A stretch of DNA of 251 bases from Escherichia coli (lineage in GTDB: Bacteria > Pseudomonadota > Gammaproteobacteria > Enterobacterales > Enterobacteriaceae): NCBI RefSeq assembly GCF_003334385.1, contig NZ_QOWN01000220.1. The stretch is one strand, 5' to 3'. This document shows, piece after piece, positions 1-251 of this stretch. Below the pieces are notes generated by a model that saw only the letters and a program-made list of their open reading frames with translations, was not told the DNA's origin and searched no databases. How positions within the stretch are numbered: position 1 is the first letter of the stretch; each line of letters starts with the position of its first letter. The translations under genes were made by a program, and so were the position numbers.

Positions 1-251
1 CTTACGGCCTCTTTCACCATCTGCTCAAGCATCGGACGCACATCATCGGGGGTAATACTTTTGCCGTCCGCCGGTACAGGAATATTTGCGACCGCATCAT
101 TCACCGCCTTCTGCAATACTTCCGGATCATAGTCACGACCGTCGCGCGGAACAGGGATATGGCTTACCGCCTCCTTCACCATCTGCTCAAGCATCGGACG
201 CACATCATCGGGGGTAATACTTTTGCCGTCCGCCGGTACCGGAATATTCGC
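1..251 (-). CDS. Internal fragment (partial at both ends) of a tandem-repeat protein; possibly a phage tail-fibre-like or surface repeat protein
   Basis: Seen in sequence: the minus-strand frame with codons complementing 249-251, 246-248 ... 3-5 is open across the window (83 codons, 2 leftover bases at positions 1-2). The other two minus frames hit stops early (TGA in both). Plus frames 1 and 2 have stops (TAG at 130-132; TAA near 52-54). The translation is acidic/aliphatic/Pro-rich and protein-like. All four substitutions between the repeat copies (positions 6/168, 12/174, 78/240, 87/249) are synonymous third-position changes in this frame (Ala, Lys, Pro, Ala). Codon choice looks enterobacterial-like (CCG, GCG, GAT, CAG, AAA). 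The product name is inference only; no homology search was possible. Confidence 0.8.
1..251. repeat. Tandem direct repeat with a 162-bp period (about 1.55 copies in the window); copy segments 1-89 and 163-251
   Basis: Seen in sequence: direct alignment of 1-89 against 163-251 at an offset of 162 gives 85/89 identical bases. Mismatches are at 6 (g/c), 12 (t/c), 78 (a/c) and 87 (t/c). The period is a multiple of three (54 codons), so the repeat is in-frame and intragenic. Within one unit, 162-251 and 90-161 are degenerate half-repeats at the protein level. Confidence 0.95.

Follow-up and report, generated by a model that had tools for sequence, protein, structure and literature searches.

A 251-nt stretch of Escherichia coli DNA (contig NZ_QOWN01000220.1 of assembly GCF_003334385.1; this whole stretch is referred to below as the window) was analyzed. 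We found that the window comprises one and a half periods of a 54-amino acid (aa) super-repeat in the stalk of a modular prophage protein that is coupled to the phage portal. The protein, which is found either as an extension linked to the portal or as a stand-alone product (PHROG family phrog_1289), will be called X. X may be a portal-coupled, fibre-like virion accessory protein of long-tailed lambdoid or Stx-type E. coli prophages, exposed at the portal, neck, or head surface. We favor this reading tentatively, giving it slightly less than an even chance.

Positions 1–89 and 163–251 of the window form a direct repeat, in which 85 of 89 positions (96%) are identical and the second copy starts 162 nt, or 54 codons, downstream of the first. 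A match of this length and identity inside 251 nt is far beyond chance. The near-identical in-frame repeats with a Pro/Asp/Gly motif that the first-pass annotation of the window had pointed out are thus real, and the motif can be written as IPVPxDG(K/R)(S/D). Of the six reading frames, minus frame 1 and plus frame 3 are open. Minus frame 1 is open across the whole window (positions 3–251, minus strand, 83 codons) and specifies an 83-aa peptide, ANIPVPADGKSITPDDVRPMLEQMVKEAV-SHIPVPRDGRDYDPEVLQKAVNDAV-ANIPVPADG.... All four differences between the repeat copies are at third codon positions of this frame and are synonymous, while in the plus-strand frame they affect codon position 1. Selection thus acts on the minus frame, of which the plus frame is a shadow. 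The plus-strand frame 3, also open for 83 codons, was rejected as a gene: it runs in register with the sense codons as an antisense shadow, and in the gene copy of E. coli EC2 (locus L001) it extends across the repeats to a 340-aa antisense open reading frame (ORF; L001:8860-9882, minus strand). The same absence of amino acid changes is seen in the full gene, whose three 29-aa units differ from each other by 4, 3, and 1 synonymous codons and by no non-synonymous changes. Since the differences between copies are purely synonymous, the peptide is either under purifying selection or homogenized by recombination.

A weaker sub-repeat, with spacings of 87 and 75 nt, is present in the window, and the 54-aa period is therefore built of two related units, of 29 and 25 aa. 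Read on the minus strand, the window starts with the final two codons (Ala-Asn) of a B-type unit (positions 246–251; register taken from the full protein). A complete 29-aa A-type unit, IPVPADGKSITPDDVRPMLEQMVKEAVSH, follows at positions 159–245 and consists of a Pro/Asp/Gly loop and an amphipathic helix, as judged by motif positions in the full protein and by both AlphaFold models described below. A complete 25-aa B-type unit, IPVPRDGRDYDPEVLQKAVNDAVAN, occupies positions 84–158 and was delimited using the motif register and the 87/75-nt sub-repeat. The open frame and the register place a second A-type unit at positions 3–83; 27 of its 29 residues are present before the window ends, and its peptide is identical to that of the first. 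Tandem Repeats Finder reported nothing in the window, because the window is shorter than two full 162-nt periods. An Rfam scan of the window gave no hit at E ≤ 1, and a reading of the window as RNA is not needed.

In megablast searches, the window matched 1,146 of 5,426 complete E. coli genomes (median, seven places per genome; best identity, 98.4%). Matches were likewise obtained in 90 phage records, Stx-type or lambdoid, among them Stx1a-, Stx2a-, and Stx2c-converting phages and phages 2851, YYZ-2008, BP-4795, 1717, and JLK-2012 (genus Marienburgvirus). All near matches were E. coli chromosomes or E. coli phages, in agreement with the enterobacterial origin proposed earlier from codon usage, and every match lay under a coding sequence named “phage portal protein”. 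The sequence itself is ordinary and catalogued, being part of a multi-copy prophage gene that roughly one in five complete E. coli genomes carries; the Stx1, Stx2a, and Stx2c phages of enterohaemorrhagic E. coli are among its carriers. In E. coli EC2, the window corresponds to L001:9001-9251 (98.4% identity) and to residues 550–632 of an 861-aa ORF (L001:7354-9939).

The portal part of this ORF is well defined. The TIGR01537 model matches residues 45–388 with 349.3 bits (cut-off 112), PF04860 matches residues 54–382 with E 1.6e-80, and solved HK97-type portals (396–431 aa) align to residues 43–420. The portal domain thus ends near residue 420, and the window, as a segment of the repeat stalk, is outside it. 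Like members of the HK97 portal family (PF04860, TIGR01537; structures 8CEZ/8FQL, 9LBN, and 6TBA), the ORF of the window begins with a bona fide portal domain; unlike them, it carries an extension, which is absent from the solved relatives and is mostly a separate gene in relatives. Moreover, a portal domain is present in the ORF of the window only in one allele, termed G6 below, while the G5 allele puts the window in a separate ORF. The 83-aa window peptide alone matched no NCBIfam model. Among PHROGs, the fused form is represented by phrog_2271, which matched the 861-aa ORF over positions 1–859 of its 859-position profile (E 0); phrog_1289 matched the same ORF with E 2.8e-196. The window peptide matched phrog_2271 and phrog_1289 with E 4.3e-49 and 2.8e-30, respectively, and stand-alone homologues matched phrog_1289 end to end. 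The “portal protein” label of phrog_1289 has no portal domain behind it, and the module is mislabelled in PHROGs and RefSeq. For the window segment the label is misleading, since it hides a module outside Pfam and NCBIfam that has at least 661 diverged homologue clusters and almost always follows one clade of HK97-type portals.

The portal domain is followed by an acidic Ser/Gly-rich linker and then by the long N-terminal helix of X. The structure of X was modeled as a monomer with AlphaFold, using an alignment of 108 homologues. In this model, the N-terminal helix spans residues 3–50 (stand-alone numbering), has predicted local distance difference test (pLDDT) scores above 90, and shows a 3–4 spacing of hydrophobic residues. 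The stalk contains eight IPxPxDG motifs at residues 527–714 of the 861-aa ORF, with a 25-aa unit (IPVPRDGRDYDPEVLKQAVNDAVAN) alternating with the 29-aa unit that is complete in the window. Each unit is made of an IPxPxDG(K/R)(D/S) loop and an amphipathic helix of 13–17 residues; in the model, helices of this length alternate with 12-residue loops at pLDDT 50–75. A single-sequence AlphaFold run gave a mean pLDDT of 41 and was uninformative. In Pfam scans, no family covered the repeat unit. In profile searches, the repeats matched designed helical-repeat proteins (E 4e-7 to 1e-4); these matches were dismissed as compositional and show only that the repeats are of the helix-loop kind. The precomputed Pfam labels of database copies were likewise not meaningful: PF28083 (QatB) is only a faint match on record, TetR_C_35 reached E 4–6 only, and FliG_N and DUF4244 were without support in Pfam scans.

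The C-terminal domain of X (~130 aa) is conserved and was modeled, with the 108-homologue alignment, as all-beta at pLDDT 95–98. Its best fold matches were chitin-binding modules, parts of phage tail fibres, and collagen-like phage fibre proteins. The domain has a fold of the CBM5/12 type, with the small three-stranded beta structure (~45–60 residues) of these carbohydrate-binding modules. Among the 108 homologues, Pfam CBM_5_12 (PF02839) was matched by 21 at E ≤ 1e-3 and by 62 at E ≤ 0.1, the best value being 3.5e-6. PHROG tail-fibre profiles matched the domain weakly and partially (E 0.0067 for the E. coli protein, 1.9e-5 to 5e-11 for relatives), and in relatives the matches arose in part through collagen-like tails. 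Compared with the CBM5/12 modules of chitinases such as Serratia ChiB and Streptomyces ChiC, E. coli X has a weak Pfam score and lacks an attached enzyme domain. The possibility that the C-terminal domain is basic and binds DNA was discarded, because its median isoelectric point (pI) across the family is 6.2.

The length of the stalk varies in steps of one period. Intact X proteins, counted from the MTERE start, are 245, 299, 353, 407, 461, 515, or 569 aa long in different prophages, which fits 245 + 54n, and gene spans in phage records (2586/2585, 2423, 2261, and 2099 nt) differ by steps of 162 nt. The proposal that repeat number varies between strains through recombination between units is borne out by these values. 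The two 89-nt copies of the window, at positions 1–89 and 163–251, would be substrates for such unequal recombination, as the copy-number classes differ by exactly their offset. All entries obtained in a word-indexed protein search were near-identical E. coli sequences, and most of them were partial. Database copies are for the most part incomplete proteins at contig ends because near-identical repeat units recombine or break draft assemblies, and the 162-nt units, which also change in copy number, therefore matter for typing and comparing Stx prophages. About 10–20% of copies (IMG/VR loci L073, L097, L067, L081, L094, L096, and others) carry a frameshift or truncation in the repeat or C-terminal region, with products of 90–379 aa; this is consistent with decay in defective prophages.

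Whether X is fused to the portal depends on a single base. A poly-G tract at L001:8702-8707, ~300 nt upstream of the position of the window in the gene, contains six G residues in fused alleles (G6) and five in split alleles (G5). In G6 alleles, the reading frame continues into X as ...MFRGDTEKMTERELS...; in G5 alleles, the portal terminates with ...MFRGILRK-TGA, and the TGA overlaps the ATG of MTERELS... as AAAATGA. The gene is thereby toggled between two ORFs and one fusion. In phage JLK-2012, which has G5, the region is annotated as two ORFs. A sequencing error was rejected as the origin of this two-ORF form, because G5 is present at 1,195 places in finished E. coli genomes and also in Salmonella and Hafnia relatives. 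In these finished genomes, the G6 haplotype was found at 1,338 places in 752 genomes and two G5 haplotypes at 712 and 483 places. Among IMG/VR loci, one and the same flanking haplotype is seen with either number of G residues (23 G5 versus 37 G6 loci); overall, there were 61 exact G5 matches, ~57 of them in portal context, and 42 G6 loci. Split and fused states are thus about equally common in E. coli, and a single strain can carry prophages of either kind. The split form, again with an AAAATGA overlap, is also present in Salmonella phage FSL SP-016 and in a Hafnia prophage, and is therefore ancestral. As a side observation, pipelines annotate split alleles either as a pseudogene or as a pair of portal proteins, and otherwise call one long portal.

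Since X starts on the portal stop codon (AAAATGA), portal and X appear to be translationally coupled. The G-run GAGGGGGA is located 11 nt upstream of the X ATG and is also the likeliest candidate for the Shine-Dalgarno element of the downstream ORF. The overlap has the form A_AAA_TGA (L001:8710-8718 and L002:8548-8557). If tRNA-Lys slipped by −1 at the stop codon of G5 alleles, the fusion protein would be made at low level, and the site is thus a putative programmed frameshift.

The gene lies in a head module. In L001, TerS, TerL, a 645-aa prohead-protease/major-capsid fusion, and a 73-aa ORF precede the 861-aa ORF, which is followed by head-tail connector, head closure, gp10-like, tail completion, major tail, chaperone, tape measure, and tip genes, in this order. 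Distal tail and tip genes are more than 7 kb downstream of the 861-aa ORF. The order of the head module around portal and X was the same in seven further loci. The first-pass annotation had suggested inspecting the flanking genes for a tail assembly chaperone. The neighbors are the portal domain on the upstream side and genes for the head-tail connector and for head closure on the downstream side; a tail-fibre assembly chaperone was not found nearby in the L001 and JLK-2012 neighborhoods.

The family was defined by an exhaustive phmmer search with residues 441–861 as a query. At E ≤ 1e-3, the search yielded 5,608 representative clusters, of which 661 remained at E ≤ 1e-30; the weakest matches may share only the CBM-like or the repetitive part. 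The top 149 representative homologues are nearly all stand-alone proteins of 240–700 aa with 0–20 units, and only one of them, P0254 (1,237 aa), contains a portal domain. In their sources, homologues are named “hypothetical protein” or, evidently wrongly, “gp6-like head-tail connector” (Hafnia). X is strongly acidic (median pI 4.9), and its stalks are interchangeable between homologues: IPxPxDG-helix units, LPxPEPxPLPDI-helix units, VNVNVPEAAPP units, or collagen G-X-Y runs with SAYE-type inserts are found. The collagen repeat (PF01391) is absent from the E. coli protein and was detected in 4 of 108 homologues at E ≤ 1e-3 and in 22 at E ≤ 0.1; a collagen-like stalk replaces the IPxPxDG stalk in P0230, P0203, P0233, and L183:5801-6892. 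Collagen-like stalks and tails suggest that the family is trimeric. Such stalks were seen at the portal-adjacent position in these four cases and in L171:1720-2571, some with SAYE-type inserts, a feature familiar from tail fibres; a short collagen-like tail forms the end of many homologues.

Scanning IMG/VR with a portal profile identified 80 loci, whose portals are 47–100% identical to the query; 74 of these loci had enough downstream DNA. An X ORF with the conserved C-terminal domain abuts or overlaps the portal stop in 62 of the 74, an in-frame portal–X fusion is present in 4, X is disrupted or displaced in 3, and 5 have no conserved C-terminal domain. In four of the last five, a portal-adjacent ORF is still present; it resembles X in its N-terminal helix and has a stalk of repeats or of the collagen-like type, but its C-terminus is different. 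At L163:3438-4379, L183:5801-6892, and L188:6033-6422, a different, much smaller C-terminal end replaces the CBM-like domain. The portal–X order was also found in Salmonella, Hafnia, and metagenomic loci. Fusions outside E. coli, L162:4483-7791 and L186:2160-5900 (the latter being the same protein as P0254, L113:7001-10714), have an acidic Pro/Asp/Ser-rich linker and ~20–28 LPxPEPxPLPDI-helix units. Both are fused although they share only 60% identity, indicating that this fusion has been maintained for a long time.

Based on these data, the following mode of action can be proposed for an exposed, fibre-like X. The N-terminal heptad-patterned helix (~50 residues) would serve as an anchor and oligomerization element that docks X at the portal vertex, the repeats would form a length-adjustable and largely sequence-tolerant spacer, and the C-terminal domain would be the binding end, with a glycan as its most likely predicted ligand. 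Unequal recombination between near-identical 162-nt units would change the stalk by 54 aa, and one extra G in the G5 tract fuses X in frame to the C-terminus of the portal. We lean slightly towards an exposed fibre, and otherwise weigh it about equally with an interior protein tethered to the portal crown; the lean is due to the modular fibre build, the collagen-like variants, the CBM-type tip, and the fold matches, all of which are to exposed fibre proteins. Several points weigh against this reading. X is near-universal beside this portal clade and in this resembles a core head component more than a typical accessory fibre. The fused lineage outside E. coli has persisted through 40% divergence, with no obvious internal ribosome-binding site or start signal in it. 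The PF02839 match of the E. coli protein is weak (E 0.012 and 0.0049), the repeat region is of low confidence in the monomer model, and literature searches found no description of the extension. To our knowledge, the C-terminus of the portal forms the crown inside the capsid in all solved portals, and C-terminal GFP fusions to the T4 portal are reportedly packaged inside the head.

The interior alternative we consider a substantial possibility with clearly less than an even chance: X would be an internal minor head protein tethered to the portal crown, non-covalently via its N-terminal helix and covalently when fused, and would act in genome retention or ejection, or be released to the envelope, where the CBM-like domain could bind peptidoglycan. 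It would then be a positional analogue of SPP1 gp7 and Mu gpF. SPP1 gp7 binds the portal inside the head, and MuF genes are directly downstream of the portal (PMC5576092), just as X overlaps the portal stop in nearly every member of the portal clade; like gp7 and gpF, X has a modular build and a variable C-terminal part. The in-frame fusions in about half of the E. coli copies and the independent fused lineage just described also fit a crown-tethered protein. However, the MuF domain (PF04233 or PF06152) was found by Pfam neither in the E. coli protein nor in any of the 108 homologues, and in place of the globular MuF fold X has a coiled coil, a repeat stalk, and a CBM-like domain. Neither collagen-like stalks nor chitin-binding-type modules are known to occur inside capsids, stalks of up to ~28 units (P0254, L186) would exceed the capsid width if extended, the acidity of X also speaks against this location, and a fused copy would be unable to leave the head unless cleaved. 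The portal tether could instead serve assembly, with X as an arm that captures capsid or protease-capsid subunits, nucleates the shell, and is later removed by the prohead protease. This would suit a core gene that is coupled to the portal and sits among head genes already relying on a polyprotein strategy (the protease–capsid fusion), a simple tether would tolerate fusion and almost any length or type of stalk, and the conserved C-terminal domain could have a conserved phage partner. We nevertheless find an assembly factor decidedly unlikely, since it is wholly inferential, the CBM5/12 fold usually binds glycans, cleavage of X is without evidence, and the metagenomic locus L106 has separate protease and capsid genes and still has X.

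Two further readings fare worse. A side tail fibre or host-range protein, or else a large bacterial surface adhesin, had been the first-pass candidate, and the repeat stalk, the carbohydrate-binding-type tip, the copy-number variation, and the weak PHROG tail-fibre matches speak for it. What survives of this candidate is the prophage origin, a virion structural module, and the fibre-like build; homologues were not cytoplasmic enzymes, and a phage context was found. As a tail fibre or an adhesin X is extremely unlikely: in every locus examined it is in the head module between portal and head-tail connector, with the tail tip genes more than 7 kb away, all matches are in prophages or phages, there are no secretion or autotransporter genes, and Pfam detected no translocator domain. 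Among the closest known systems are phage fibre proteins with collagen-like stalks and a C-terminal CBM5/12-type knob, and tail-fibre parts of Agrobacterium phages 7-7-1 and Milano. X differs from these in genomic position, lying in the head module beside the portal; moreover, the E. coli stalk is made of IPxPxDG-helix units rather than collagen, and there is no sign of tail attachment. The extension could also be an integral functional part of the portal, for example a C-terminal barrel like that of P22, as the single 861-aa RefSeq portal ORF, the full-length phrog_2271, and the helical segment directly after the crown might imply. We judge this very unlikely, given that the separate ORF is ancestral and the commonest form across genera (Salmonella FSL SP-016, Hafnia, 62 of 74 loci), that split copies are as common as fused ones in E. 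coli, isolated phages included, and that a portal domain is so rare among the representative homologues. In P22, the barrel extends the C-terminus of the portal into the head as a single uninterrupted helix that lacks both repeats and a beta domain, whereas the helices of X are only 13–17 residues long and are separated by Pro/Asp/Gly loops. The neck whiskers of T4 consist of fibritin (Wac), a fibre of helical segments that ends in a small beta domain at its C-terminus. With both the P22 barrel and fibritin the analogy is architectural only, X having no sequence or fold match to either. There is also a broader reading, which we regard as conceivable but improbable: X would represent a large unrecognized class of portal-tethered virion proteins, in the MuF/gp7 position of one HK97-type head clade. 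Its attachment to the portal would be switched between non-covalent and covalent, heritably and reversibly, by G5/G6 slippage in a tract doubling as the X ribosome-binding site, and recombination would adjust the length of its stalk in steps of 54 aa; each genotype might make both products, through a low-level −1 slip at A_AAA_UGA or through internal initiation. If X is indeed a fibre of the portal vertex or a crown-tethered internal protein, it would be a new component of the HK97-type head.

Asadulghani (2009) tabulated the state of portal function for each Sakai prophage, with nothing on the extension. Several other features of the head module were noted. The major capsid protein carries an S78 prohead protease at its N-terminal end, as one fusion protein (645 aa, L001:5205-7142). 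The head order TerL, protease–major capsid protein, small ORF, portal, X is unusual and is also found in Salmonella, Hafnia, and metagenomic relatives. In the metagenomic relatives L106:9165-10510, L107:5294-8186, and L110:7908-11422, genes for a methyltransferase, a hexapeptide-transferase, and an MptE-like protein, together with several ORFs of unknown function, are located directly 3′ of X in the head module; they may encode modification enzymes for virion proteins or glycans.

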